DNA of 13,111 bases from Bdellovibrionota bacterium (GCA_040754655.1 JBFMCE010000101.1:1-13111), one strand, 5' to 3'; shown: positions 131 to 12,943, counted from the stretch's first letter. Notes: generated from the letters alone by a model not told the origin. Numbers and translations: made by a program.

Positions 131-1726
131 TTAATCCATCAAGTATGGATCCTGATCCGGAGTAGGATCTGTTGAATAAGCTCCTTCGGCTAAGAGTGGA
201 GTCGCCGTCGTCGATGGATCGTAACAGACGCAATTTTTATTCGGAACCTTGCCTTCATCACACGTCACCGGGCAATTCAAGCCGGCATGCAATGAGACGT
301 CGGTGATGCCGCCGCAACTCCATTCGCTTGTGGTGATTTCGTTGGCGTCTGCATATGGATTTGGAAGTACTTGATTTCCACGTGGTGGAAAGGCGGTATC
401 GTCTAGCGAATCTACAGAAACTTGCCCGCGACGGAAAATGTCGATCAGCGCGCGACAAGATGGAGTTCCCGCTCCAACGACCCCAGCGTTTGGATCGGGA
501 TCCGGGACCTCATCGCCTTCGGGATCTGATGATGGATCTTCTCCGCTCATGTGAACGAGCTTCCCATCCTTATTAACGATCACTAAGTAAACAAGCTTGC
601 CTTCCGCATCTCTGGCAGAGACCATCCAACTTCCGTCGGAGCGTGTCTCAGTTTTATAGGTGTGGTTATCGATGACTGTCGTTGTTTCTGTAGGGGAGTT
701 TCGTAGATCGATGGCATTCCCATTTTCGTCGAGAACGCGTTGTGCGACGTAGTCCGGGCCCTTAGATTCGACTTCGTTTTGATACTCAATGACCTGGTCT
801 TTCGTCAAAGGATTCGGTGGGCCCTCGGGCACAGGAATAACTACGCCATCTCTCTTGAAAACAAATGTACCGTCAGGTTGCCTTTGAAAGTGCGCTTCTC
901 CTGGTCCGGCCCCCGACCCAGGGCCAGTTGGCGTCTCAGACGCGCTGTCCATGCACTCATTCACAAGTTGATTGAGTTCACCATGCTCTGGCGTGGGATG
1001 CGCGTTTTGCACCGTGACGGGTATGCTATCGATGCAATCGGCTGAAGGCAGTGTTCCGAGATCGGCAAAAGGGCTCTTGCCGCTTGGTCCTCCGGGACAG
1101 GCGGTGCCCTCTGGTGCTAGCGGATCTACGGGGTCAGATGCCTCGGTATATTGTGACGTTCCTGGCTCTGATTCACAGCTGTCTCCTTCGGACAGAAGAT
1201 CTTCAATCGCACTCAGCGATACCTGAGCCAACAGGGTATTGATATGGGTGCGAAGCTTGGTCGGATCGACGCGATTCGCGATGTGCGTCCCGAATCTACG
1301 CACAGACACCAAGCGATTTTGATTTACGGCATTTTTGTAATTGAGAGTCGCCGTAAGAGAAGCCAATGCCTGACTCTTGACGGTTGACGAGATTTTATAG
1401 GACTCGGCCAACCTCTCCATAAAAAATAGAGAAACTGGTTCTAGCCCGTCGAAATAGTGATTGCTGGCGTACTCTGCCAATGCCTGAAATCCGTTGCTGA
1501 TTCCGTAAATGTCGCTGCGTTTTCCGAGAGTGACTAAAAGGTTGCGAGTTGCTCGGTCATAGACGTACCCTCGAGGCGAAGTGTAGGCGACCTGAAGCTT
1601 GCGGAATTCTTCCTTCAAGGCAGTTCTATCTGCAGTCAAAACCGCTTGATCGAACGCATCGCTTTTTTGAGCGAAAGAGAAGGTTAAAAGAAATATTCCA
1701 ACAAAAAGCCTCAAAAATAGATTCAT
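131..1726 (-). CDS. Secreted hypothetical protein (531 aa) with Pro/Gly/Asp-rich linkers and a Cys-rich C-terminus
   Basis: Long ORF with a GAGGGG SD-like sequence upstream of the ATG. The N-terminus looks like a Sec signal peptide (MNLFLRLFVGIFLLTFSFAQ...). It has 10 Cys, all after about residue 180, and a terminator follows. No family recognised. Confidence 0.85.
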   Translation of the reverse strand: MNLFLRLFVGIFLLTFSFAQKSDAFDQAVLTADRTALKEEFRKLQVAYTSPRGYVYDRATRNLLVTLGKRSDIYGISNGFQALAEYASNHYFDGLEPVSLFFMERLAESYKISSTVKSQALASLTATLNYKNAVNQNRLVSVRRFGTHIANRVDPTKLRTHINTLLAQVSLSAIEDLLSEGDSCESEPGTSQYTEASDPVDPLAPEGTACPGGPSGKSPFADLGTLPSADCIDSIPVTVQNAHPTPEHGELNQLVNECMDSASETPTGPGSGAGPGEAHFQRQPDGTFVFKRDGVVIPVPEGPPNPLTKDQVIEYQNEVESKGPDYVAQRVLDENGNAIDLRNSPTETTTVIDNHTYKTETRSDGSWMVSARDAEGKLVYLVIVNKDGKLVHMSGEDPSSDPEGDEVPDPDPNAGVVGAGTPSCRALIDIFRRGQVSVDSLDDTAFPPRGNQVLPNPYADANEITTSEWSCGGITDVSLHAGLNCPVTCDEGKVPNKNCVCYDPSTTATPLLAEGAYSTDPTPDQDPYLMD

Positions 1727-2070: not shown

Positions 2071-3318
2071 ATGTCAAATCCTATCAAACCTATCCTGATA
2101 AGTCTTTTAGTGGGGTTGTATTTTGGTGCTCCGGTTTTGGCGAGTGATGCCATCACGAAAATCAAAGACTACTTTACTAAAAACAAGATTTCCCAAAACA
2201 TGCAGATGGCAAATGACTTAGAGTCTCTGATAAATAACTTGAGCAAAAGCTTAAATGGAAGACCGTTCGAGTATACTCAATGGAGCGGCTTTTCCGGTGT
2301 AGGCATCAATAAAAGCGAGGTGTTTGCTTACAGCAACATGGTGATCGACCACATCAAGGTGGCACAGTCGCAAACACCAGAAGCCGTTCAGGTGATCATT
2401 GCAGGGGGTACAGTAGATGGTATCGGAATGCTCGATGAGGTTATCAGAAGTGCGCAAGCGCGCCGTAAAATCAAGCCGGTCGTATATGTGGGAATGATGT
2501 CGGCAGCTGGTGCCGGTTATCCGAGTCAAATTTCTCGTCATCATGACCATCTGATGGTGATGGATACCTTTGTCGGCCCTGATGGGAAGATGAGCTGGGA
2601 ACTGAAGAAGAGCCCTCATGGAATGAGTATGACGGCTCAAATCCACAAGGCTCTGCTCTCACTTGAGAATTGCCTAGGCGGAACCCAAGAGTATTTCGAG
2701 GGTGGTGAAGTCGCTTTACGAGAGAGCGCCGAAATTCTTGCTTTGGCATCAAGTCGTGATTTCCCAAGAAGCAAATTTCGTCTCGTCTTGCATCCCGGTG
2801 TCAATCCGGCAGCTGTTGCTAACCCTGCTAAAGACAAGGGATTTCGAGCCGCGACGATCCTCGCTCATATCCTGCATGAGAGTCCAGGTCTTATTCCCCA
2901 AGGCCTTTCGCTATTGATTGAACCCAACCATCAGGCTCCTGATCGTTGGCGTACCGGAGACTTTAAAGCAAAGTACAGCTTGGAAGAATATTTCACCCAA
3001 AAACATGACGACATTGACCCAAGAATCAACTTGGAAGAAGGACACTTTGAGCAACAGGTGCGTGAGGCGGAAAGGATCATCGTTGAAGCGAAATCCCAAT
3101 TGGGTTCGGCAGCGAATTGGTCCAAGAATCGGCCTGTATCGCAGGGCTATTACGGTTCTCGGCAATATTTTCAAGGGTTGATTCGGTATTACGAAGCGCG
3201 GATCTTGTTTATGCAGTCGTGGCTTCGTTTCCAAAAACGTTATCCTGAAGGAAAAAATATTTTCTTGTCTGCCATGAAATCGTGCGAAGCATCGCTATCA
3301 AGCAATGACTTGCATTAG
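2071..3318 (+). CDS. Secreted hypothetical protein (415 aa), probable SLOG (SMF/DprA-LOG) superfamily Rossmann-like domain
   Basis: Signal peptide MSNPIKPILISLLVGLYFGAPVLA|S. The motifs WSGFSGVG, VIIAGGTVDGIG, YVGMMS and YFEGGEVALRE occur in the order expected for SLOG/LOG folds (compare GG.G, GI and GG.GT..E). The CDS is confident; the family call is moderate. Confidence 0.75.
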   Translation: MSNPIKPILISLLVGLYFGAPVLASDAITKIKDYFTKNKISQNMQMANDLESLINNLSKSLNGRPFEYTQWSGFSGVGINKSEVFAYSNMVIDHIKVAQSQTPEAVQVIIAGGTVDGIGMLDEVIRSAQARRKIKPVVYVGMMSAAGAGYPSQISRHHDHLMVMDTFVGPDGKMSWELKKSPHGMSMTAQIHKALLSLENCLGGTQEYFEGGEVALRESAEILALASSRDFPRSKFRLVLHPGVNPAAVANPAKDKGFRAATILAHILHESPGLIPQGLSLLIEPNHQAPDRWRTGDFKAKYSLEEYFTQKHDDIDPRINLEEGHFEQQVREAERIIVEAKSQLGSAANWSKNRPVSQGYYGSRQYFQGLIRYYEARILFMQSWLRFQKRYPEGKNIFLSAMKSCEASLSSNDLH

Positions 3319-4028
3319 CTCCTCTGATTTCCCTCGGTCTGCGCCCGTTTCATCCACTGCCTGAGCGCTTCTGGAAATTCTGAGGGGATCTCTTCAAATT
3401 CAGCGTATGCGCTGTAAAAACCATTTTCCGAATCGAATGAATTGGAAACTACCGAAACCAATAGTCCTTCGACAGAAGGGCTGATTTCCTGGAAAATGCT
3501 TGATTTCAATTTGAATACAGTCCCTTTTGGAATCAAATGGCGACTGATCAGGCTCACCCCAAGCTCGTCAATCGCGTCAACTTCGACCTTGAACGAAAGT
3601 CTGGCCGGAGCCCGTCCGTCGGGAATGTCAACGAAGGTCGCAAGATGTTCTTTTATACTTTCGGTTTTGACATATCTTGAGAGTTTAGACGCGAGCAGGG
3701 TTCGGTCGAGGGGCTTGAAAATAAAGTCATTGGCGCCTAGTTCCAGTGCATGAGTCACGTCTTGCTGTTCTTTCGTGCCTGAAATCACCACGATCACAGC
3801 TTTTGGATTTGTTTTACGCAGTTCTTTTACAAGCTCAAAACCCGTTACATCGGTCAGTTGAAGGTCGATGATGTAAAGATCAGGATCAAGCTTGTCCGCG
3901 TACTCAAGGAACTGCGCTGGTTGAGAGGTCGTCTTGATGTTTAATCCCAGTCGCGGAAAGACGGCCTCCATCGTTTTTCTGAACAGCGGATCATCATCGA
4001 TGATGAGAACAATGGGTTTTGATCTCAT
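3315..4028 (-). CDS. Response regulator: REC domain plus degenerate PilZ-like C-terminal domain
   Basis: REC motifs IIDDD, LYIIDLQL (phospho-Asp), VISG and FIFKP. The C-terminal beta-rich part has VDAIDELGVSL...KGTVFKL...YAEFEEI. The start is moved to the ATG at 4028, which overlaps the upstream TGA (ATGA) and has an AAGGA SD; the ORF track's 4034 start is a TTG. Its stop codon overlaps the convergent stop of the 415-aa gene. Confidence 0.88.
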   Translation of the reverse strand: MRSKPIVLIIDDDPLFRKTMEAVFPRLGLNIKTTSQPAQFLEYADKLDPDLYIIDLQLTDVTGFELVKELRKTNPKAVIVVISGTKEQQDVTHALELGANDFIFKPLDRTLLASKLSRYVKTESIKEHLATFVDIPDGRAPARLSFKVEVDAIDELGVSLISRHLIPKGTVFKLKSSIFQEISPSVEGLLVSVVSNSFDSENGFYSAYAEFEEIPSEFPEALRQWMKRAQTEGNQRS

Positions 4029-4708
4029 TTCCAATCCTTTAGCCGTTTTCTAATCCTCTTTGCTATCGACTCGCCAATTGCCACGAAATTCAGGTCGTTC
4101 AAATACCTGCCTTGGGCGACGGGGTTTGCCAAAGACTTCGCGGTTCGAATCATGACGTCGCCGCAATCTAGCTTGCGCAATAATTCGCCTGATAGCTCGA
4201 CCGTCTCATCAGAAGCGAGTTTAATGCTTGCTTCAATCTGCAGGCCGATTTCGCTGGCTTTCAAGACTTCCACCGGAAGAGAGACCTCTGCCTCAGGGCG
4301 ACGGGTTTTGAACTGCAAAGAGAGGAAGGATTGATCCTTAAGGCGTTTTCTTGCCTTTTGCAAAAGAGTGCCAGCTCGAATGGGCTTAAGCACGTAATCG
4401 GAAGCCCCTAAAGCAACGGCTTCAGTGACAGAGGCTTTGTCATTCCGCCCGCTCAACACAATGACGGGTATGTTCTTAAGAAGCTCATTTTTTCGTTTTT
4501 CCTTCAGAAAATCGAACCCATCCTTTTCGGGCATGGTCAGGTCCGTGATGATCAGGTGCGGTGTTTTTGAAGCAGCTAACGCGAGCCCTTCATCTACGTT
4601 CTCAGCGAGAAATACAATGATGCCCTCGCTTTCTAGAATCAACTTGACGGTCTTCCGCACGTCACTCATGTCATCAATGACCAGCACTGTCTTTCCCGTC
4701 AAGCCCAT
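4025..4708 (-). CDS. Response regulator: REC domain plus degenerate PilZ-like C-terminal domain
   Basis: REC motifs VLVIDD, LIITDLTMPEKDG, VIVLSG and YVLKP. The C-terminal part VLKASEIGLQI...GRYLNDLNFVAI resembles a PilZ barrel with a terminal helix. Confidence 0.88.
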   Translation of the reverse strand: MGLTGKTVLVIDDMSDVRKTVKLILESEGIIVFLAENVDEGLALAASKTPHLIITDLTMPEKDGFDFLKEKRKNELLKNIPVIVLSGRNDKASVTEAVALGASDYVLKPIRAGTLLQKARKRLKDQSFLSLQFKTRRPEAEVSLPVEVLKASEIGLQIEASIKLASDETVELSGELLRKLDCGDVMIRTAKSLANPVAQGRYLNDLNFVAIGESIAKRIRKRLKDWK

Positions 4709-4729
4709 ATACTCGTCGACCCTTTGATC

Positions 4730-5098
4730 TTAAGCCGTCTTTTTCATTTGTTGATGCATTTGTTCAGCAACGAGCCGATATTCAGCCTCGAGCTCTTCAA
4801 TCAAGTTCTTCAAAAGTGCTTCCGGCCCTTTCTCAATGTTTTGGCAAATGGCGGCGAAACGATCTGCCCCGAGGTTGCCGGCATTAGACTTCAGAGCATG
4901 TGCTTGTTTTCTGATACTGAAGATATTCTGAGCCTCAAGTGCGCTTCGCATGTTTCGCATCATTTCGGGCACTTCGCTGAGGAAAGCCTCAAGCAGTTCA
5001 GTGACCACGCTATCGCGAGGACTGCGATCAAGTTTTCTCAAGTCATCTAAAACGCTCACGTTCAAGGTTGCTTCCTTTTGAGCTTTGTTCTGGGTCAT
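4730..5098 (-). CDS. Stand-alone histidine phosphotransfer (Hpt) protein
   Basis: Hpt motif QAHALKSNAGNLGA and a helical composition. The start is placed at the ATG at 5098 (MTQNK), preceded by an AGGAG SD; the ORF track starts at 5122. Confidence 0.92.
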   Translation of the reverse strand: MTQNKAQKEATLNVSVLDDLRKLDRSPRDSVVTELLEAFLSEVPEMMRNMRSALEAQNIFSIRKQAHALKSNAGNLGADRFAAICQNIEKGPEALLKNLIEELEAEYRLVAEQMHQQMKKTA

Positions 5099-5111
5099 TT
5101 TTTTCTCCTGG

Positions 5112-7871
5112 CTATGCCGCATGCGCCTTCTTCAACCAGCGCTCCAACGTAAATCTCAAGTTTTGAACTTTGGTGGGTTTGGTGAGGTAGTCGTCCATTC
5201 CTGCCTCCAAACATTGTTCTCGGTCTCCCTCAAGGGCGTTGGCGGTCATAGCTATGATTACCGTATGCCGCGAATTTTCTTCCTTCTTTCTTATGGCTGC
5301 TGTCGCCTGAAAACCGTCCATTTCGGGCATTTGGCAGTCCATCAAAATGATGTCATAGTTTGTCTTCTCCAATGCAGCCAACGCTTCAAGGCCATTTGTA
5401 ACGGCATCAGCCACATAGCCCAATTCTTCAAGTTGCATAACGGCGATTCTTCGGTTCGTCGTATTGTCTTCCACGATCAGAATTTTCGCGGGATGCGCTT
5501 GCTTTTGGGACTCTGCCTGACGAGGGATGGCAGTGGTTTGCGTTTCTTCCAGTGGGCCACTCATCGTTTGTATGACTGCGTCGAGAAGATAAGACTGTTT
5601 CAACGGTTTCATGAGTTCGGCGGCAATGCCCAAACTTTCCATCTCCGCCGAACGCTTGTGGGGCTGTGTCATCATCAATAAAAGAGGCATCGTTGAAATG
5701 CTCGAATCTTCGCGAATTTTCTTTGCTAGAGAAAGCCCATCTAAAAAAGGCATTCCCATATCGATTAAAGCCAACTGAAAGGGGTCGCCATTTTGAGCTT
5801 CGTCCTTCAAAAGTTCTAAGGCCATTCGGCTGTCACGCGACGAAGTGATGCGCAGATTCCACATCTCCATGAGGCGGCTCACATGTTTTAGATTGGTCTC
5901 ATTGTCATCTACGACTAAGATGCGTTTTCCCCTCAATGTTGAGGCGCCCGGCGTTGCCAACGCTCCTCTGGAAATCACGTCTTTTTCATTCTGGCCTTTT
6001 GTAAAACGAGCCGTGAATGAGAAGAGAGATCCTTCTCCAAATTCGCTTTGAACCTCGATCATACCCTCCATCCTTTTGACGAGTTGCTCGGAAATCGCCA
6101 GACCAAGACCTGTACCGCCGTATTTTCGTGCAGTCGAGCTATCGGCTTGTGAAAAGGCCTTAAAGAGTTTGGGCAACTCTTCCTTTCGAATCCCGACACC
6201 GGTGTCTCTTACCTTAAAGAGCAAGGTTGCCTTTGTTTCATCTTCTTGTTCGCAACTCACTTCGAGATCGACTTGTCCTTTGGAAGTGAACTTGAGTGCG
6301 TTTCCCAGGAGGTTGGTCAGTACTTGCCTGAGTCTTCCGTGGTCGCCTTTCAGCAAGAGAGGAGCTTTTGGGTCGATTGAATAAACTAATTCTACGCCTT
6401 TGCTTTGAGCGGTGTGAGACAAGAGATCCATCACGCCTTCGATGCTGGTGCGGAGATTAAAGTCAAGGACTTCGAACCTCAATTTGCCGGCCTCGAGCTT
6501 CGAAAAGTCGAGGATGTCGTTGATCACGGTCAGAAGAGAATCCGCGCTTAGGCGGACCGTGTCTACGAAATCCTTCTGCCTCGTCGTTAGGGATGTCTTC
6601 AACAGCAAGTCGGTCATCCCGATTATCCCGTTCATGGGAGTCCTGATTTCATGGCTCATGTTCGCTAGAAATTCCGACTTGATTTGCGCCGCAGCTAATG
6701 CCGCCTGTGCCCGGACCCGCGCCTCAGTGTGCTCGCGTTCAAGTTGCCTTACTTCGGTCACATCTTCGCACACCACGACTCCGGCAACGACTTTGCCCAT
6801 CTCGTCTCGCACCGGAGCCGCGCTCAGTCGAATCACTCCTCGGCTGCCATCCCCGCGAAGCACGTCGGTGTCTTCATTGCGAATGATCGCGCCAGTCATG
6901 ATCGCGCGCGCCAGCGGCCAGTCCGTGGGCGCGTAAGGGCGTCCGTCGGGGTGAAAGCCTTTCCACATTCCGTATTCATCAATATTCTTGGATTTGTGCA
7001 TTTCATGACGCCAAACATCCTTCGTGCGTGGATTAGAATACATCAGTCTTCCCGAGGGCGCTTCACAGATGATGACCGAAGAGGGCATTTGCTCTAAAGT
7101 TGTTTCAAAGAGGCGCCGCTGAACTTCGCTTTCCTTCAGACGCTCTCGAATATTCGAGTTCACAAAGAAAATGGCAAGAACCGTCAAAAGGATCGCAGCC
7201 CCGGCGCCAATGCGAACAACGAGCATGCTGCGCTCAAATGCACGATCAACTTCGTGCGAGCGGGCCGTCAGTTCAATGTTTTCGTCTTGGATCAGGTCGT
7301 CAAGAACGGCATGAATTTCATTCATAAGGCGCAAACCACGATTGTTTTGAACTGCCTTCAGTGACGAGATGTAACCTCTTTCACGGCGAAGGCGAATTGT
7401 TTCAGACATCTCTACGAGTTTGTCTTTCAGTATTTTTTCAAGCCTGCCAATGCGTTCTAGCTGCCCGGGATTGTGGCTTAGCGTGGTGCGCAGCGAGGCT
7501 ATCTTGCCATCAAGTGACCCGGGGGCGGTATTGTATGGCTTGAGGTACTCTTCATTGCCGGTGAGCAAGTAGCCCCGCTGGCCCGTCTCGGCGTTTTTGA
7601 CGAGCAACGAAACTCTTTCAAGCTGAAGAATGTTTTTTCTAGCTTGAGCGACTGCTTGATTGGCTTTCGAAAATTTTACGAGGCTGTGTGAAGAATAAAT
7701 ACCGATGATTGAGAGCAGCGCTAGCGTCGACAGAAACGTCGCCGATGCTTTTCTCTCTACTTTTAGTTTCGTTACGATCCGATGAAAGTTCAATTTACGG
7801 CGCAAGAGAGCAGCCGTTGCCGTTAGCAACAAACCTAGCAGTGAAATAGACAACCAGTGACCCATGGGCAC
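5112..7871 (-). CDS. Membrane hybrid sensor histidine kinase (TM-CHASE3-TM-PAS-HisKA-HATPase-REC-REC)
   Basis: CHASE3 signature NAETGQRGYLLTG..YLKPY, PAS/PAC ending VVVCEDVTE, H-box FLANMSHEIRTPMNGIIG, N-box QVLTNLLGNALKFT, G1 DTGVGI, F/G2 FSQAD...YGGTGLGL, and two REC domains (LALIDMGMP; IILMDCQMPEMDG). The start is either GTG 7871 or ATG 7865. Confidence 0.96.
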   Translation of the reverse strand: MPMGHWLSISLLGLLLTATAALLRRKLNFHRIVTKLKVERKASATFLSTLALLSIIGIYSSHSLVKFSKANQAVAQARKNILQLERVSLLVKNAETGQRGYLLTGNEEYLKPYNTAPGSLDGKIASLRTTLSHNPGQLERIGRLEKILKDKLVEMSETIRLRRERGYISSLKAVQNNRGLRLMNEIHAVLDDLIQDENIELTARSHEVDRAFERSMLVVRIGAGAAILLTVLAIFFVNSNIRERLKESEVQRRLFETTLEQMPSSVIICEAPSGRLMYSNPRTKDVWRHEMHKSKNIDEYGMWKGFHPDGRPYAPTDWPLARAIMTGAIIRNEDTDVLRGDGSRGVIRLSAAPVRDEMGKVVAGVVVCEDVTEVRQLEREHTEARVRAQAALAAAQIKSEFLANMSHEIRTPMNGIIGMTDLLLKTSLTTRQKDFVDTVRLSADSLLTVINDILDFSKLEAGKLRFEVLDFNLRTSIEGVMDLLSHTAQSKGVELVYSIDPKAPLLLKGDHGRLRQVLTNLLGNALKFTSKGQVDLEVSCEQEDETKATLLFKVRDTGVGIRKEELPKLFKAFSQADSSTARKYGGTGLGLAISEQLVKRMEGMIEVQSEFGEGSLFSFTARFTKGQNEKDVISRGALATPGASTLRGKRILVVDDNETNLKHVSRLMEMWNLRITSSRDSRMALELLKDEAQNGDPFQLALIDMGMPFLDGLSLAKKIREDSSISTMPLLLMMTQPHKRSAEMESLGIAAELMKPLKQSYLLDAVIQTMSGPLEETQTTAIPRQAESQKQAHPAKILIVEDNTTNRRIAVMQLEELGYVADAVTNGLEALAALEKTNYDIILMDCQMPEMDGFQATAAIRKKEENSRHTVIIAMTANALEGDREQCLEAGMDDYLTKPTKVQNLRFTLERWLKKAHAA

Positions 7872-7908
7872 CCTTTTGTGAGTTTTGTTGACACGTCTAG
7901 TTTATCCT

Positions 7909-7937
7909 TCATCGACGGAATCCGATGCAATCCTTTA
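7909..7937 (-). promoter_or_regulatory. Possible internal sigma28-like promoter for the hybrid kinase sub-operon
   Basis: The minus strand reads TAAA-N17-GTCGATGA in the 76-bp gap upstream of the kinase. The spacer is about 2 nt longer than the canonical TAAA-N15-GCCGATAA. Confidence 0.25.
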
Positions 7938-7947
7938 ATCGAGCTGG

Positions 7948-8352
7948 CTAGGCTGCTTTTTTTATTATCGTCAAATAGGTGCGTTCAAGTTTTTCCTTGA
8001 TCACCTTCTGGTCAAACGGTTTGACGATGTAATTGCTCACGCCCGCCTCGACCGCCTCCCGCACTTTTTCAGGAGTTCGTTCCGAGGTTACCATGACGAA
8101 GGGGATGTACTTCATCCGCTCGTTGGCCCGCACTTTCTTGAGCAGCTCAAGGCCTCCCATGTCGGGCATGTTCCAATCGCAGAAGATCACTCCAATCACA
8201 GGTTTGCCGGCGATCAGGCACTTCCAGGCCTCTTCGCCGTTTGCGGCGTGCCTGAAACGTTTGAAACCCAGGTCCATCAAATGTTTCACGAGCAAGTTGC
8301 GTGTCGTGGCCGAGTCGTCAACTACCAGTATTCCGGTTTCATCATTAAACAT
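7948..8352 (-). CDS. cheY: CheY-like single-domain response regulator
   Basis: ILVVDDS, IFCDWNMPDMGGLELLKKVR, PFVMVTSE and GVSNYIVKPF are hallmark CheY motifs. It has a GGAGG SD, and its start overlaps the upstream kinase stop by 8 nt. Confidence 0.88.
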   Translation of the reverse strand: MFNDETGILVVDDSATTRNLLVKHLMDLGFKRFRHAANGEEAWKCLIAGKPVIGVIFCDWNMPDMGGLELLKKVRANERMKYIPFVMVTSERTPEKVREAVEAGVSNYIVKPFDQKVIKEKLERTYLTIIKKAA

Positions 8353-10504
8353 TCGTGTCCTCCTGGGTATCAGTCGCTAGGATTTCGAGAAAAAAAGTTC
8401 CGTTTTGCATTTCGTATGGAATCACAATCGCTCCAGACTGCGCTTTATTTAGTTTTTTTGCCAAAGCTTGGCCAGTCAGCACGGTCGGAAACGAGGGCTT
8501 GAGCTCATAACCTAATGCGCGCAGCTCAGGGTCCATCACGCCGAACGCGATATTGAGCAGTTCCCCCGCGAGGTCTTGGTTGTCTGCTGAGATCGTCTTC
8601 ACGCCGGTATCTTGAAACATGTTCGCGTAGATCTTGAGGAAAGTGGTTTCTGAAAAACCCAGGAGCAAGCTCGTATTGAATTCTTTTCCCGACAGGTTTA
8701 TCAGGCCAGCGACTTTGATGTCGCCATGTTCATGGTCTTCGCGAAAAACGGGCTCGCCAGGGGTGACATGGGTGTTCGTGTGTCCTCTCAAGGTCTCTCG
8801 GATCCCTTTTGTAAGTATTCCCAGCAGGTTTTTCTTTTGCATCACGTGTTGAAGGACGTTTTTCGAGAAATGGGGGATAGGCCCGCTTTTCTTTTTAAAA
8901 ACCACGCTCACTTGAGTTCCCTTATTGAGTTCACTTTTGAGTTCCACGAAACCGCCGAACTTGCACGCGGTTTGGTGAACTGCTTCAAGCCCGACGCCGC
9001 GACCTGACATCTCGGTGACTTGGTCCTTGGTTGAAAAGTCGCCCTGCAAAAGAAGTTGATGGCAGTCTTTCTCGGTCTTTGGAATGGGCAGTCCTTTTTC
9101 GCGGGCTTTTGCTTTGATTTTTTCGTAATTCAGCCCGGGGCCATCATCCTTGAACGACAGGCGGTATTCATCGCCGGATTGCTGCAGCCTCATGACGATT
9201 TTGCCGTGAACCGGTTTTCCTAGGCGCTGTCGTTCTTCAGGAGGCTCGATGCCATGGTCTGCCGCATTTTGCGCGAGGTGGATGAGCGATTTGAAAAGCT
9301 CGGTATAGAGATCAGGCCTGATCGAATCAGATGGCAGCCATTCAATGGGACTGGCATTTTTTTGCAAGCGCAGCGCCGCTTGGATGAAGGCATCGCTAAG
9401 CCATCCTAGGACTTCCTTGGCCGAGGCTTCGGCAAGCTCTTCGATCGCCGTCAGGATTGGTTTTGGGACCTTGGCTTCGTACGCTTTTTCGAGAAGTTGG
9501 TGCAAGGCTGCCGTGCGGACTCGCACCGAGGGCGATCGGTCACTTTTTAAATTGAGGATTTGATCATGCTCGTTGATGAACGTCGCGACGGAAGTTTGAA
9601 TTTCATCCAAAGCCTGAGTGTACAAAGCAGGGGAGTACTTGTTCTTCAAGCGGTCTTCCCAAGCATGGCATAAGGAAGCGAATTCCCGGCATTCGAGAAA
9701 CCCAAAGCTGCCCTTTAGGGTATGCAGTGACCTTATTGCTTCATGCTCGGAAGGACTGCGCGAGCTCAAAGATTCGATCATCTCAAGAAGGCTGATGAAG
9801 TCATTCCGTGACCGCAAGATCTTCACAAGGGTCTTGTTGGTTTGGCGTTCTTCTTCGCTCTTCCTCTCTAACTTGCGCATTTCAGTGACATCGGTCGCGA
9901 TGATCATGATGCGTTTGATAGAGCCGTGCTCGCTACGGATAGGGCGGTATTGCATTGCGATGGCCTTGCCATTTTTTTCAATCAGCGAAGGCAGTACCCC
10001 GACATAATCCTCAAACGGAATCATTTCAGCGAAGAGCGTGCGGATCGAGGCGCCCCATTCGGACTTGTCCTGCCCCAAGAGCTCTCCTAAATGCCTGCCC
10101 GCGGGGTTTGGCCCGAACAGCGTCGTCACTATCGACGAGCATTCGTCGCTCACGCGCGCGCTTTCGTCGACCGAGAAAAAACCTTGGCCCGCGTTATCCA
10201 AAAGCAGGCGAATAGATTCCGTTCGTTCTTTGACCTGCGACTCAAGCTGGCTATTGTGCTTGCGCAGCTCTTCATTTCGCATTTCGGCCAGTTGCTGTTT
10301 GCGTAAGTTTTCTTCCATCCGGCCGCGCGCGGTGGCGAGCGCCTTGTGAATCGAAGACTGGTGCTCGGAATTGTAGAGTTGCTTGACCTTCTGTTTGAGA
10401 ACCGTGAGAGTCGCCTCGGCCGCTTTTAATTTCTCACCCGGGCTCAATTCAAGATTATCCGCCGGGACCTGAGGGACTATCTTCAACGCTGTTTTGTTTT
10501 TCAT
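8345..10504 (-). CDS. CheA-like histidine kinase fused to a CheX phosphatase domain (coiled coil-PAS-Hpt-HATPase-CheX); no CheW/P5 domain
   Basis: Signalling helix ESQVKERT, then PAS (LLDNAGQGFFSVD...IATDVTE), Hpt RSLHTLKG (His261), and a CheA-type ATP-binding domain (HLAQNAADHGIE, DDGPGL, FSTKDQVTEMSGRGVGL). The C-terminus is CheX-like (VAGLINLSG...LLLGF...DLAGELLNIAFG; E648-x-x-N651). Confidence 0.92.
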   Translation of the reverse strand: MKNKTALKIVPQVPADNLELSPGEKLKAAEATLTVLKQKVKQLYNSEHQSSIHKALATARGRMEENLRKQQLAEMRNEELRKHNSQLESQVKERTESIRLLLDNAGQGFFSVDESARVSDECSSIVTTLFGPNPAGRHLGELLGQDKSEWGASIRTLFAEMIPFEDYVGVLPSLIEKNGKAIAMQYRPIRSEHGSIKRIMIIATDVTEMRKLERKSEEERQTNKTLVKILRSRNDFISLLEMIESLSSRSPSEHEAIRSLHTLKGSFGFLECREFASLCHAWEDRLKNKYSPALYTQALDEIQTSVATFINEHDQILNLKSDRSPSVRVRTAALHQLLEKAYEAKVPKPILTAIEELAEASAKEVLGWLSDAFIQAALRLQKNASPIEWLPSDSIRPDLYTELFKSLIHLAQNAADHGIEPPEERQRLGKPVHGKIVMRLQQSGDEYRLSFKDDGPGLNYEKIKAKAREKGLPIPKTEKDCHQLLLQGDFSTKDQVTEMSGRGVGLEAVHQTACKFGGFVELKSELNKGTQVSVVFKKKSGPIPHFSKNVLQHVMQKKNLLGILTKGIRETLRGHTNTHVTPGEPVFREDHEHGDIKVAGLINLSGKEFNTSLLLGFSETTFLKIYANMFQDTGVKTISADNQDLAGELLNIAFGVMDPELRALGYELKPSFPTVLTGQALAKKLNKAQSGAIVIPYEMQNGTFFLEILATDTQEDTNV

Positions 10505-11646
10505 GCCGCCTCACCGAATACAATGCCCACCAAGGTCTGGTTGATGTGCAGGCCATTGAGTTGTTCACCGTAGGTGTCGAAGCCGATTGATTGGCGTGCG
10601 AGATTGTTCGAGAGTATTTTCCCCAGTGTGTCGTGGTAATTTTTAGACGAGGCTTCTAGGCTCCTCAGAATGCAGTTGCATCCGATGAACCAATCCGCCC
10701 TTTTCAGGGTTTTTCTGACCTTTTCGACGTCATTGCGGAGCGTTTCTTCCATTGAAAGGTGGTTTGCGATTTCGAGCACCATGCCTTCTTCCACCGCGCA
10801 GTAGAAGACGAGGCTGCCATCGGCCTCTGCTTTCTGGATTGAACGCACGTAAACTTCGTTATTGCAAGAAAAGGTGAGGGGGTGCATCGAGAACACGGCG
10901 GGGCTGAGTCGTTCAATACTCAAGCCCAGCGCGCGCGCATAAGCTTCAGCCGCAGGACGCCCATCGAAGGTGAGTACCTTTCTTTCCGCAACGTTCACTT
11001 CTGTGACCACCAAGTCTCGTTCAGAGCGCAAGAAATGCTGGTGTTTTATGACGTGGAAGGGGATCGAGCTTTCTCCCAGCACTACTACGGCAGCGTCAGA
11101 GAGGCATTCTCCGTTGGCCATCACGAAGGTGTTCACGAATTTCAAATCGTCACCGGCAGAGCCACCAAGAAATGGGATGCCTTCGAAGGCGTCAGCGAGG
11201 AGTGCTGCTGAACGTTCTTCTTTTTTTGAAAGCCCGTCAAAAAAGCCCAGGCAGAAATGGCGTTTGGAATCGAGATTCTCAAGCGTAAGGCCAAGCCGAT
11301 GGCTCAATTCGAGTGCGACTTTCGCAGCTCTTTCAGAATCAATTTTTGACAACTCGTTCACCGGCGCTACAGCCCAGCGAATCTCTTTTGAGACCACTGC
11401 GGATACGACGAGTGAGCCTGTGAGGCGTTTTCCGTCAAGATACTCGCCCGCAGTGGTGCATCCCACTGAAGGCACGCCTGGAAATCTTTTCTTGATTTCA
11501 GCAGCCAGCTTGCGCGGGTCTTGCGAGGTCGAATGAAAGACTATGAGGAACTGAATGTCGTTGCCATTGATCGCCCAAGAGCCAGTGGCTTCATCGAGAG
11601 CCTTGGCTGCGTCTTGCGCCGTCGAAACACCGCTGAGAATCTTCAT
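10501..11646 (-). CDS. FIST-domain signal transduction protein (FIST_N + FIST_C; NosP-like)
   Basis: FIST motifs GCTTAGE, FDGLS..EE, FLGGSAGDDLKF, CNCILR and GFDTYGEQLNGLHINQT. It has a GAGGAG SD, and its stop overlaps the kinase start (ATGA at 10501-10504). Confidence 0.93.
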   Translation of the reverse strand: MKILSGVSTAQDAAKALDEATGSWAINGNDIQFLIVFHSTSQDPRKLAAEIKKRFPGVPSVGCTTAGEYLDGKRLTGSLVVSAVVSKEIRWAVAPVNELSKIDSERAAKVALELSHRLGLTLENLDSKRHFCLGFFDGLSKKEERSAALLADAFEGIPFLGGSAGDDLKFVNTFVMANGECLSDAAVVVLGESSIPFHVIKHQHFLRSERDLVVTEVNVAERKVLTFDGRPAAEAYARALGLSIERLSPAVFSMHPLTFSCNNEVYVRSIQKAEADGSLVFYCAVEEGMVLEIANHLSMEETLRNDVEKVRKTLKRADWFIGCNCILRSLEASSKNYHDTLGKILSNNLARQSIGFDTYGEQLNGLHINQTLVGIVFGEAA

Positions 11647-11669
11647 TGTGACGCGTCTCCTCGTTGTTT

Positions 11670-11696
11670 TTATCGGCGAAGAAACGTCATTCTAAA
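11670..11696 (-). promoter_or_regulatory. Sigma28 (FliA)-type promoter driving the FIST-kinase-cheY operon
   Basis: The minus strand reads TTTA-G-N14-GCCGATAA. The -10 element (11670-11677) is a perfect match at canonical spacing from an imperfect -35 element, and it lies 23 nt upstream of the FIST ATG. Confidence 0.7.
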
Positions 11697-11758
11697 TAGG
11701 ATGCAAAATTTACCCAGCTCTCACGTGAAAGCAGATGCGAGAATTTCAACAGAGCGGG

Positions 11759-12943
11759 CTAGACTGCTTGTCCGGCGGCCCAGCCCGAGGCCCAGGCCCA
11801 CTGGTAGTTGTAACCGCCAAGCCAGCCAGTGACGTCAACGACTTCGCCGATGAAAAAGAGGCCGGGGCATTTTTTCGACTCCATCGTCTTTGACGAGAGT
11901 TCACTGGTACTCACCCCGCCACGAGTGACCTCTGCTTTGGTGTAGCCTACGGTGCCATGCGGAACGAAGGTGAAGTTTTGGAGCACTTCGCAGAAATTTT
12001 CAAGTTCGGCCTTGGTGAGGTTTGATAAGCTTTTTTGAGCCGGCCAATGCAAGTCATAGAAGCGCTCAGCCAGCCTTTTTGGGATGAGGTCCGCCATCAT
12101 GTTCTTGATCTCGCTCTTTGAGCTTTTCCGGTCGGAAAACCACTTCATCAACGCGGCTTGTGACATCGCCGGAATGAAATTGATCGTGACCGGATCTTTT
12201 TCATGCCAATGCAAAGAGGCCTGTAGAGCCACTGGGCCACTTAAGCCCACGTGAGTGAAGAGAAGATTCTCTTGGAATGAAATGCCATTGCAGCTCATGA
12301 CGGCGTCTAGTGCAATTCCGGCGAATCCTTCAAACGTCTTGTGGTCTTCTTCATTGAAGGTGAAACCATCTAACGCGGGCGCAAGCGGCGTGACTTCAAG
12401 TCCGAATTGGCGCGCGATCTCATAGCCGATGCCTGTTGCTCCGATCTTAGGAATCGAGAGACCTCCTGTCGCGACAACGACAGAGTGGGCAGTGAATTCT
12501 TTTTGGTCGGTCTGAACAGAAAAACCTGCCTCAGTTTTTGAGACAGACAAGATCTTGTGCTTCAAAAAAAAATCGGCTCCGGCCGCGTCACATTCTTTTT
12601 TCAGCATGTCGATCAGCTGTTGGGCAGACGAGTCGCAAAAGAGTTGCCCGTGTTTTCGCTCGTGAAAGGCAATCCCATGGTCGCGCACCATGGCGATGAA
12701 GTCGTCGGCGGTAAACCTAGAAAGAGCCGATTTGCAAAAGTGTTCATTTTGAGAAACAAATTGCCGTGGCGAGGCTCCGCGGTTTGTGAAATTGCATCTG
12801 CCGCCGCCCGAAATGATGATCTTGCCGCCGACCTTCGCGGCATGATCCAGAAGCGCGACTCGGCGCCCACGCCGGGCGGCATGGATGGCACACATCATTC
12901 CGGCTCCTCCGGCGCCTAAGATTACAACGTCAAATTCGTGCAT
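11759..12943 (-). CDS. yhiN: HI0933/YhiN (BaiN-like) NAD(P)/FAD-dependent flavoprotein oxidoreductase
   Basis: Motifs GAGGAGMMCA, GGKIIISGGGRCNFTN, SQNEHFCKSALSRF, GQLFCD, ATGGLSIPKIGATG, AEVTRGGV and GEVVDVTGWLGGYNYQWAWASG closely match the E. coli YhiN pattern. Confidence 0.93.
   Translation of the reverse strand: MHEFDVVILGAGGAGMMCAIHAARRGRRVALLDHAAKVGGKIIISGGGRCNFTNRGASPRQFVSQNEHFCKSALSRFTADDFIAMVRDHGIAFHERKHGQLFCDSSAQQLIDMLKKECDAAGADFFLKHKILSVSKTEAGFSVQTDQKEFTAHSVVVATGGLSIPKIGATGIGYEIARQFGLEVTPLAPALDGFTFNEEDHKTFEGFAGIALDAVMSCNGISFQENLLFTHVGLSGPVALQASLHWHEKDPVTINFIPAMSQAALMKWFSDRKSSKSEIKNMMADLIPKRLAERFYDLHWPAQKSLSNLTKAELENFCEVLQNFTFVPHGTVGYTKAEVTRGGVSTSELSSKTMESKKCPGLFFIGEVVDVTGWLGGYNYQWAWASGWAAGQAV

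Follow-up and report, generated by a model that had tools for sequence, protein, structure and literature searches.

How is a CheA-type histidine kinase brought under the control of a signal when it carries none of the domains by which CheA docks on chemoreceptor arrays? The question is raised by three adjoining genes in a 13,111-nucleotide (nt) stretch of DNA from a Bdellovibrionota bacterium (GCA_040754655.1 JBFMCE010000101.1:1-13111). This stretch, referred to below as the window, is contig C101 of a 3.78 Mb assembly (G000) that consists of 196 contigs and is 90% complete. Three open reading frames (ORFs) on the minus strand encode a FIST protein (P0002), a CheA-like kinase with a fused CheX phosphatase domain (P0001) and a CheY-like receiver (P0003); their coordinates match exactly those of an earlier reading made without database searches (the sequence-only reading). 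The answer favored here, which is considered probable, is an array-independent phosphorelay in which the FIST protein acts in trans on the kinase, phosphate passes from His261 of the kinase to Asp59 of the CheY-like receiver, CheX resets the signal, and motility is the output. The interpretation as a whole is partly supported, and comparative genomics lends good support to the wiring that it proposes. The genes are arranged as follows:

10501..11646, minus strand: FIST protein P0002, 381 amino acids (aa); its stop codon overlaps the kinase start (ATGA).
8345..10504, minus strand: kinase-CheX protein P0001, 719 aa.
7948..8352, minus strand: CheY-like receiver P0003, 134 aa; start codon within an 8-nt overlap with the end of the kinase gene.
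8176-8178, minus strand: codon of Asp59 of P0003.

The three genes are tightly coupled in translation. At the FIST/kinase junction (gcATGAaaa) 4 nt are common to stop and start, and at the kinase/receiver junction (ATGTTTAA) the 8-nt overlap has AGGAGG directly 5' of it. The sequence GAGGAG lies 13 nt ahead of the first start codon. A scan of positions 7600-12100 for sigma-70 promoters and terminators gave none on the minus strand, and the number of sites was not above that of shuffled sequence. MCP, CheW, CheR and CheB domains were found in none of the 10 window ORFs that were scanned with Pfam.

Pfam matches in P0001 were Hpt (2.5e-7), HATPase_c (8.4e-13) and CheX (9.9e-10). Together with structure prediction by AlphaFold2 (AF2) and comparison with solved structures, they define the following parts:

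10193..10441, minus strand: two N-terminal helices, residues 22-104 (AF2); proposed FIST-coupling and dimerising element.
9887..10192, minus strand: PAS-fold domain, residues 105-206 (PAS/LOV by Foldseek; weak Pfam PAS).
9569..9886, minus strand: Hpt (P1-like) helical bundle, residues 207-312 (Pfam Hpt, 2.5e-7).
9722-9724, minus strand: codon of the phospho-acceptor His261, in HTLKG.
9317..9568, minus strand: short helical linker, residues 313-396; no P2 and no recognisable P3 dimerisation hairpin.
8885..9316, minus strand: CheA-type ATP-binding (P4) domain, residues 397-540 (phmmer against PDB, Foldseek).
8378..8827, minus strand: fused CheX phosphatase domain, residues 560-709 (Pfam CheX).
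8561-8563 and 8552-8554, minus strand: codons of Glu648 and Asn651 in the CheX motif GELLN.

The ATP-binding domain aligned with CheA P4 of the PDB at E 1e-24 (phmmer), and its model matched 1i58 and 8p3r in Foldseek with TMt 0.79-0.84. The Hpt region matched the CheA P1 chains 2ld6 and 1tqg at E ~1e-3. Alignments to PDB chains of CheA that span P3-P4(-P5) were limited to the P4 part, and CheW/P5, P2 and H-kinase_dim gave no Pfam match in P0001 even at E<=10. Among 17 aligned relatives all have a Pfam Hpt domain and none has CheW or H-kinase_dim at E<=0.01; His261 is invariant in 17/17, as are the P4 residues H409, N413, D453-G457 and G501-G505 among the aligned relatives. Since P2, P3 and P5 are missing, P0001 would not dock on CheW/receptor arrays. 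What the sequence-only reading had described of the domains was borne out in each item that was checked: the overlapping stop and start codons, the lack of MCP, CheW, CheR and CheB in the window, a kinase with a CheA-type Hpt and ATP-binding domain but no P2 or P5, and its N-terminal coiled coil and PAS domain, which is dealt with below. Pfam returned for the three proteins the FIST, Hpt-HATPase_c-CheX and Response_reg families as they had been read, and no CheW-like domain was detected in the kinase.

The AF2 model of P0001, built on 17 relatives, has a mean predicted local distance difference test (pLDDT) score of 71.5. It comprises helices at 22-44 and ~46-104, an alpha/beta domain at 107-205, the helical bundle at 207-312, and a linker of short helices (331-343, 348-357 and 368-379) that leads into P4. 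Residues 1-235 folded alone reached a pLDDT of 85.5, and the top listed Foldseek matches of this model were overwhelmingly PAS/LOV sensor domains, for example those of BvgS, FixL and Aer2. Pfam PAS matches are weak (E 0.03-0.15); the PAS call stands nevertheless, because the fold matches PAS/LOV domains. No sensor domain was found N-terminal to the PAS in P0001. Helix 46-104 has a hydrophobic periodicity of 3.5 residues, a level reached by 1.5% of shuffles, which is compatible with a coiled coil, and T32, L36 and K37 of the N-terminal helix are invariant in 17/17 relatives.

A degraded canonical CheA was considered as an explanation of this architecture and was rejected, since the architecture is common to a large family. 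The search for proteins of the P0001 type gave 2463 matches at E<=0.001 among 8000 scored candidates, some of them canonical CheA proteins aligned through P4. At E<=1e-40 a match to the kinase was obtained in 292 of 401 genomes sampled from the phylum, ordinary CheA matches included. The closest full-length relatives (P0004, P0005, P0006 and P0011; core identity 40-43%) begin with a hydrophobic domain in which the motif GGRIE(T/S)HFHVF(G/A)S is conserved; no Pfam family was listed for this domain.

The candidate sensor P0002 consists of FIST_N (9.7e-38) and FIST_C (1.3e-18) according to Pfam. Its sole strong NCBIfam match is the NosP equivalog NF041558, at 335.7 bits, below the curated cut-off of 450 bits. 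The two other FIST paralogues of the genome reach only 68 and 96 bits against the same model, and mutual identity among the FIST paralogues is just 23-24%. In a 20-row FIST alignment covering four named phyla, C63, H204, C283, C325 and H367 are invariant; these five residues may be ligands of a cofactor or take part in redox chemistry. Each FIST gene of the genome, three in all, sits ahead of a sensor-less kinase and a receiver. The other two (L073 on contig C9 and L074 on contig C1) are each followed by a classical HisKA/HATPase kinase and a receiver, and the N-terminal helix of P0001 was not found in these two classical kinases. On contig C9 a REC-HD-GYP-type protein lies directly upstream, with 'NosR family' as its best NCBIfam match (150 bits, below cut-off); the arrangement resembles the nosRPK layout described in PMC12570481.

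With the FIST protein as query, a search of one genome for each species gave 21 loci, the closest of them in an uncultured Oligoflexia bacterium. At 17 of the 21, a kinase on the same strand follows directly after FIST, with a gap of -10 to +105 nt; 16 of these kinases are full-length (529-562 aa), and the remaining one is cut off by the end of its contig. The 17 loci are from Myxococcota (11), Oligoflexia/Oligoflexus (2), Planctomycetota (2), a 'proteobacterium' (1) and a 'bacterium' (1). Hpt and HATPase_c were found by Pfam in all 16 complete kinases, and CheW, H-kinase_dim and CheX in 0/16. The four loci without such a kinase are from Xanthomonas or Lysobacterales, and in the two of these with downstream Pfam matches REC-HD_5 and REC-HDOD proteins come after FIST. 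FIST, kinase, CheX and CheY are together at 3 of 18 loci, the window included, in three arrangements and two phyla. At L011/L012 (Oligoflexia) a divergent CheX gene lies upstream, followed by FIST, kinase and REC; at L024 (Myxococcota) the order is REC, CheX, FIST, kinase and a GGDEF protein. A REC gene is also found divergently upstream at L018, and ~5.7 kb upstream, at the locus edge, at L020.

In one lineage sensor and kinase are joined on a single polypeptide. P0282 (912 aa) combines FIST_N, FIST_C, Hpt and HATPase_c; it aligns with the whole of P0002 at 39% identity over residues 1-376 and, from residue 406, with P0001, beginning at the conserved helix AA.KTV.VLK.KV, ~30 residues past the FIST part. 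The 90% cluster of P0282 comprises six proteins (902-912 aa), which come from two sources and lie on six contigs, so a single sequencing error does not account for the fusion.

The N-terminal helix follows the FIST gene in the same way. In tblastn searches the segment of residues 22-104 was found directly after FIST at 13 loci, at 35-56% identity. A profile of the first ~235 residues of 17 kinases gave 8950 matches at E<=0.001 among 1.84 billion representatives. In 64 of the best 150 of these the alignment starts no later than position 12 of the profile: 63 are proteins of <=575 aa in which the helix is N-terminal and which have no other sensor and no CheX, and the remaining one is the fusion P0282, with the helix at residue 401. 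The other 86 are without the first 40-80 profile positions, and in most of them the match lies well inside the protein with other N-terminal regions ahead of it. In the sample of 401 genomes a profile match that starts at position <=9 was obtained for G000 and G012 alone, both with FIST upstream; the next-best matches start at position 39 or later. In a quick maximum-likelihood tree of the kinase core (residues 100-540, 54 rows), 15 FIST-linked kinases form one starred clade (98*), and P0001 and the L012 kinase fall in a separate starred set (97*) alongside 12 kinases bearing N-terminal sensors of other kinds (membrane, CHASE4-HAMP, CZB). Between the two FIST-linked groups the helix is 35-56% identical, as against 25-30% for the whole protein. 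The helix has either moved between kinase cores or been replaced several times; either way it tracks FIST and not the core.

With adjacency, the fusion and the three four-module loci taken together, there is strong comparative support for the proposal of the sequence-only reading that a FIST protein gates an array-independent CheA-like kinase which controls a CheY. The conserved triad that it had suggested survives in part: the FIST-kinase pairing holds (17 of 21 loci), and a general linkage to CheY and the association with CheX do not.

The phosphatase domain of P0001 scores 38.8 bits against the Pfam model PF13690, for which the cut-off is 27. The C-terminal 165 residues match PDB 3h2d (E 1.5e-12) and the CheX structure 6vpw (E 1.5e-8), and GELLN aligns with GE(I/L/V)(T/S)N of four solved CheX-like chains; the E..N pair, Glu648/Asn651, is presumably the catalytic pair of CheX. 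Two independent kinase-CheX fusions were seen, P0001 and P0040, the latter with a 7TMR-DISM sensor, the E..N motif kept and a place in a separate clade on the kinase tree. PF13690 was present in none of the 120 listed matches to residues 420-719 (P4 and CheX) in a word-indexed search, which returned only canonical CheA proteins matched on P4 at ~38% coverage and is unable to measure how rare the kinase-CheX fusion is.

The receiver P0003 matches Pfam Response_reg at 4.5e-24, and its best NCBIfam family is CheY PRK10610 (NF007901), at 97.8 bits, below the cut-off of 189. D12, D13, D59 (in CDWNMP), T89, Y108 and K111 are present, in roles that we take to be those of the CheY pattern. Of the five CheY-model matches in the genome P0003 ranks second, and it alone lies in a short open frame (142 aa). 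In the phylum, 17 of 28 related kinases have a REC domain with 38-49% identity to P0003 no more than 1.5 kb away; FIST and CheX were each found by tblastn at 0/28 of these kinase loci.

From these parts the following mechanism may be proposed. The sensor would be a cytoplasmic FIST protein of the NosP clade, with nitric oxide (NO), bound via heme, as the ligand by analogy with NosP. It would bind in trans to the N-terminal helices of the kinase, which probably form a coiled-coil dimer standing in for P3, and through the PAS domain it would set the rate at which P4 phosphorylates His261. The phosphoryl group would pass from His261 to Asp59 of the co-translated P0003, and the fused CheX, by means of Glu648 and Asn651, would dephosphorylate CheY-P, which may act on the flagellar switch or on type IV pili. 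With CheX fused to the kinase, kinase and phosphatase lie on one polypeptide, so a short-lived signal is expected. A precedent for the first step is Burkholderia NosP, which, according to PMC12570481, binds and inhibits an adjacent sensor-less kinase in an NO-dependent manner. A wider reading would have array-independent class III kinases steer the motor or the pilus of this flagellated Oligoflexia bacterium. The three genes would by themselves make up a minimal circuit for taxis or kinesis in response to NO, heme or redox, and the helix would be a portable 'FIST-receiver' module, passed from one kinase core to another and between phyla. This wider reading is regarded as unlikely.

Several points weigh against the phosphorelay. 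Heme or NO binding of P0002 is not readable from sequence, and the score of P0002 lies below the NosP cut-off. The PAS fold of the kinase could itself be the real sensor. CheY and CheX stand beside the FIST-kinase pair at only 2 of the 17 other loci, which marks the three-gene unit as lineage-specific. On the core tree FIST linkage is not monophyletic and could reflect repeated loss rather than a portable module, and the 'own-sensor' labels of that tree denote domain content, not gene neighborhoods. In the AF2 model confidence is low for CheX, since alignment depth was lacking there. Finally, no terminator was found between the CheY-like gene and the CHASE3 hybrid kinase gene that follows it, so that cross-talk with this downstream relay is possible. 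Two further analyses were neutral. A metagenome scan with a 6-row N-terminal alignment and one short pattern confirmed 10 loci, of which L033, on a contig as long as that of L025, shows FIST, helix, PAS and P4 and the other nine match the S-helix/PAS only, none with FIST; it is no independent support for the FIST-helix link. A complex prediction of the FIST protein with kinase residues 1-235 gave a best score of 0.17 against a mark of 0.32 and was not used either way.

The alternatives differ in which step of the phosphorelay they replace. Were the kinase to sense through its own PAS domain, FIST would merely be co-transcribed, either co-regulated or acting on another target, and there would be no direct gating. 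The PAS fold is present and well predicted, such domains commonly bind cofactors, and relatives with other N-terminal sensors keep the same PAS as a constant part of the core. That constancy, however, with a PAS in all members of the family whatever the upstream sensor, fits a transmitter role; the FIST-kinase fusion in a six-member cluster counts against sensing by PAS only, the N-terminal helix is found in kinases that are sensor-less and either FIST-adjacent or FIST-fused, and published NosP works by binding the neighboring kinase, as stated in PMC12570481. Sensing by the PAS domain alone is judged quite improbable. A change of ligand is a different matter, and that the wiring is as proposed but FIST senses another small molecule, a redox or a metal signal instead of NO/heme is given almost an even chance. 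The sub-cut-off NosP score would be explained, and the invariant residues (three Cys, two His) could suit heme, a metal or a redox switch alike; according to a review (PMC8846402), substrate binding by FIST-FIST_C is little known and the evidence for NO and/or heme is tentative. Yet among the three FIST paralogues P0002 stands out clearly as the one closest to NosP, and the characterised NosP proteins respond to NO (PMC12570481).

At the output end, the target may be type IV pilus motility, or something else such as c-di-GMP enzymes, rather than the flagellar motor. The genome has pilT (two TIGR01420 matches over cut-off), a GGDEF protein comes after the kinase at L024, and CheY is nearby at few FIST-kinase loci. 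The title of Adebali et al. (2017; J Bacteriol 199:e00218-17) also links the HKIII class of kinases to type IV pili, and a pilus output has reportedly been proposed for HKIII systems. For the motor speaks the presence of FliM with an N-terminal MNQVLTQNEVDALLS peptide (LTQNEVDALL), which we take to resemble the CheY-binding motif. P0003 is, moreover, the most CheY-like stand-alone receiver found in the genome; no CheA with P3 and P5 was found in the 90%-complete genome, and the MCP signalling domain had a single match, below cut-off. At this degree of completeness the canonical array genes are to be called not found rather than absent. An output other than the motor is accorded a substantial chance, somewhat below even. 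The last alternative reverses the direction of phosphate flow: the chief role of the kinase-CheX protein would be to dephosphorylate, or to draw phosphate from, CheY-like proteins that other kinases phosphorylate, for instance the CHASE3 hybrid kinase/Hpt relay downstream. Among the FIST-locus kinases and the 63 listed helix-first representatives the CheX fusion is seen in this genome only, the downstream relay is not set off by a terminator, and it has its own Hpt protein and two further receivers. The catalytic motifs of P4 and the Hpt histidine are nevertheless intact and invariant, and the relay is not kept beside the FIST-kinase pair at L011, so that a role chiefly as a sink is thought very unlikely.

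How much of the phosphorelay is new depends on the systems to which it is compared. In the 2017 work of Adebali et al., the HKIII class is reportedly defined by sensory domains, Hpt and a CheA-like catalytic domain, with no dimerisation or P5 domain; its partners are said to be a single-domain regulator and CheX, sometimes with a soluble chemoreceptor, and pilT is said to occur in all HKIII genomes. Each feature of this reported definition that can be tested was found here, namely P4, the Hpt histidine, a PAS domain and no P3 or P5 in P0001, an associated single-domain regulator and CheX, and pilT in the genome. The receptor-less chemosensory design is, by the same reported definition, an already described class and not a new principle, which the sequence-only reading had not recognised. 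P0001 differs from the class as reported in that no ligand-binding sensor precedes its PAS, the conserved helix and the upstream FIST protein being found instead, and in that CheX is fused and no soluble chemoreceptor gene is nearby.

NosP-NahK/NosK-NosR systems are described from Pseudomonas, Legionella, Vibrio and Burkholderia in PMC12570481 and PMC8846402. They share with the window a stand-alone FIST_N and FIST_C gene beside a cytoplasmic kinase without a recognised sensor, followed by a receiver, and in the published paradigm (PMC12570481) NosP binds its partner kinase and controls autophosphorylation. Their known kinases are classical DHp and CA (class I) proteins and their regulators have c-di-GMP domains, whereas the window has a Hpt and P4 kinase, a CheY-like regulator, an attached CheX and a FIST protein below the NosP cut-off. 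With canonical CheA (class II; Thermotoga maritima and Escherichia coli; PDB 1b3q, 1i58, 8c5v) P0001 shares the P1-like Hpt histidine, the P4 domain (up to 46-47% identity over ~40% of a 300-residue query region in the listed matches) and a CheY-like substrate; it differs by its N-terminal helices, PAS and C-terminal CheX, and the P1-P2-P3-P4-P5 order is not found. Stand-alone CheX of Borrelia and Thermotoga (PDB 3h2d, 3iic, 6vpw, 3hm4) matches over the whole domain with GE..N kept, but is a free protein of 155 aa and not the C-terminal domain of a kinase. CheA3 of Rhodobacter sphaeroides is a bifunctional kinase-related protein with CheY-P phosphatase activity. It likewise has phosphodonor and specific phosphatase for the same CheY on one polypeptide; unlike P0001, CheA3 keeps P5 and belongs to a cytoplasmic receptor cluster, and its phosphatase region is not CheX.

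No paper linking FIST/NosP to a CheA-like or Hpt-type kinase was found among those listed from the literature searched, in which few subscription journals were covered, and no CheA-like partner was seen in PMC8846402. Three features appear to be new: the use of a NosP-type FIST protein as input to a kinase of class III, the conserved helix that accompanies this input, and the kinase-CheX fusion. The locus joins the NosP/FIST gas sensors, known on classical kinases and c-di-GMP, with CheA-derived class III kinases, whose inputs and outputs have so far only been predicted; the FIST pair is a concrete and testable input. This pair is found in three phyla and, in one lineage, as a fusion; the helix may serve for docking. 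With kinase and CheX fused, P0001 is a compact model for the joint control of a CheY by kinase and phosphatase, with neither receptor arrays nor an adaptation system involved. Should the flagellar switch be the output, the system would explain how motility is biased in a bacterium that has almost no chemoreceptors.

Two other CheA-type P4 domains are encoded in the genome, one in a 1989-aa protein and one in a 426-aa ORF on a short contig. The former (L075 3635-10002, G000 contig C30) has the order Ser/Thr protein kinase-AAA_16-TPR-GAF-Hpt-CheA-type HATPase, and the gene after it encodes a receiver of 133 aa; upstream, in divergent orientation, lies a SpoIIE/PP2C phosphatase, the N-terminus of which is a weak CheX match (23.9 bits). 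CheW Pfam matches are limited to two in the genome, both weak and both on contig C106. There, a 457-aa protein (L077 2956-4329) combines Hpt with a weak CheW-like part without a kinase domain, and its neighbors are a 167-aa CheW-like ORF and an HD-domain protein.

Downstream of the three genes, a minus-strand relay occupies positions 3315-7871 of the window, beginning after a gap of 76 nt that follows the CheY-like gene and holds no predicted terminator. It consists of the following genes, identified by Pfam:

5112-7871, minus strand: CHASE3-PAS-HisKA-HATPase-REC-REC hybrid kinase.
4730-5122, minus strand: stand-alone Hpt protein.
4025-4708 and 3315-4034, minus strand: two response regulators.

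The C-terminal half of each regulator has no Pfam family match. The relay may be co-transcribed with the FIST module. Two long ORFs of 531 and 415 aa, at positions 131-1726 (minus strand) and 2071-3318 (plus strand) of the window, gave no Pfam match at E<=0.01 and no NCBIfam match at E<=1. At two Polyangiales loci (L018 6344-7642 and L020 9504-10817, minus strand), a second PAS-Hpt-P4 kinase lies convergently downstream of the pair.

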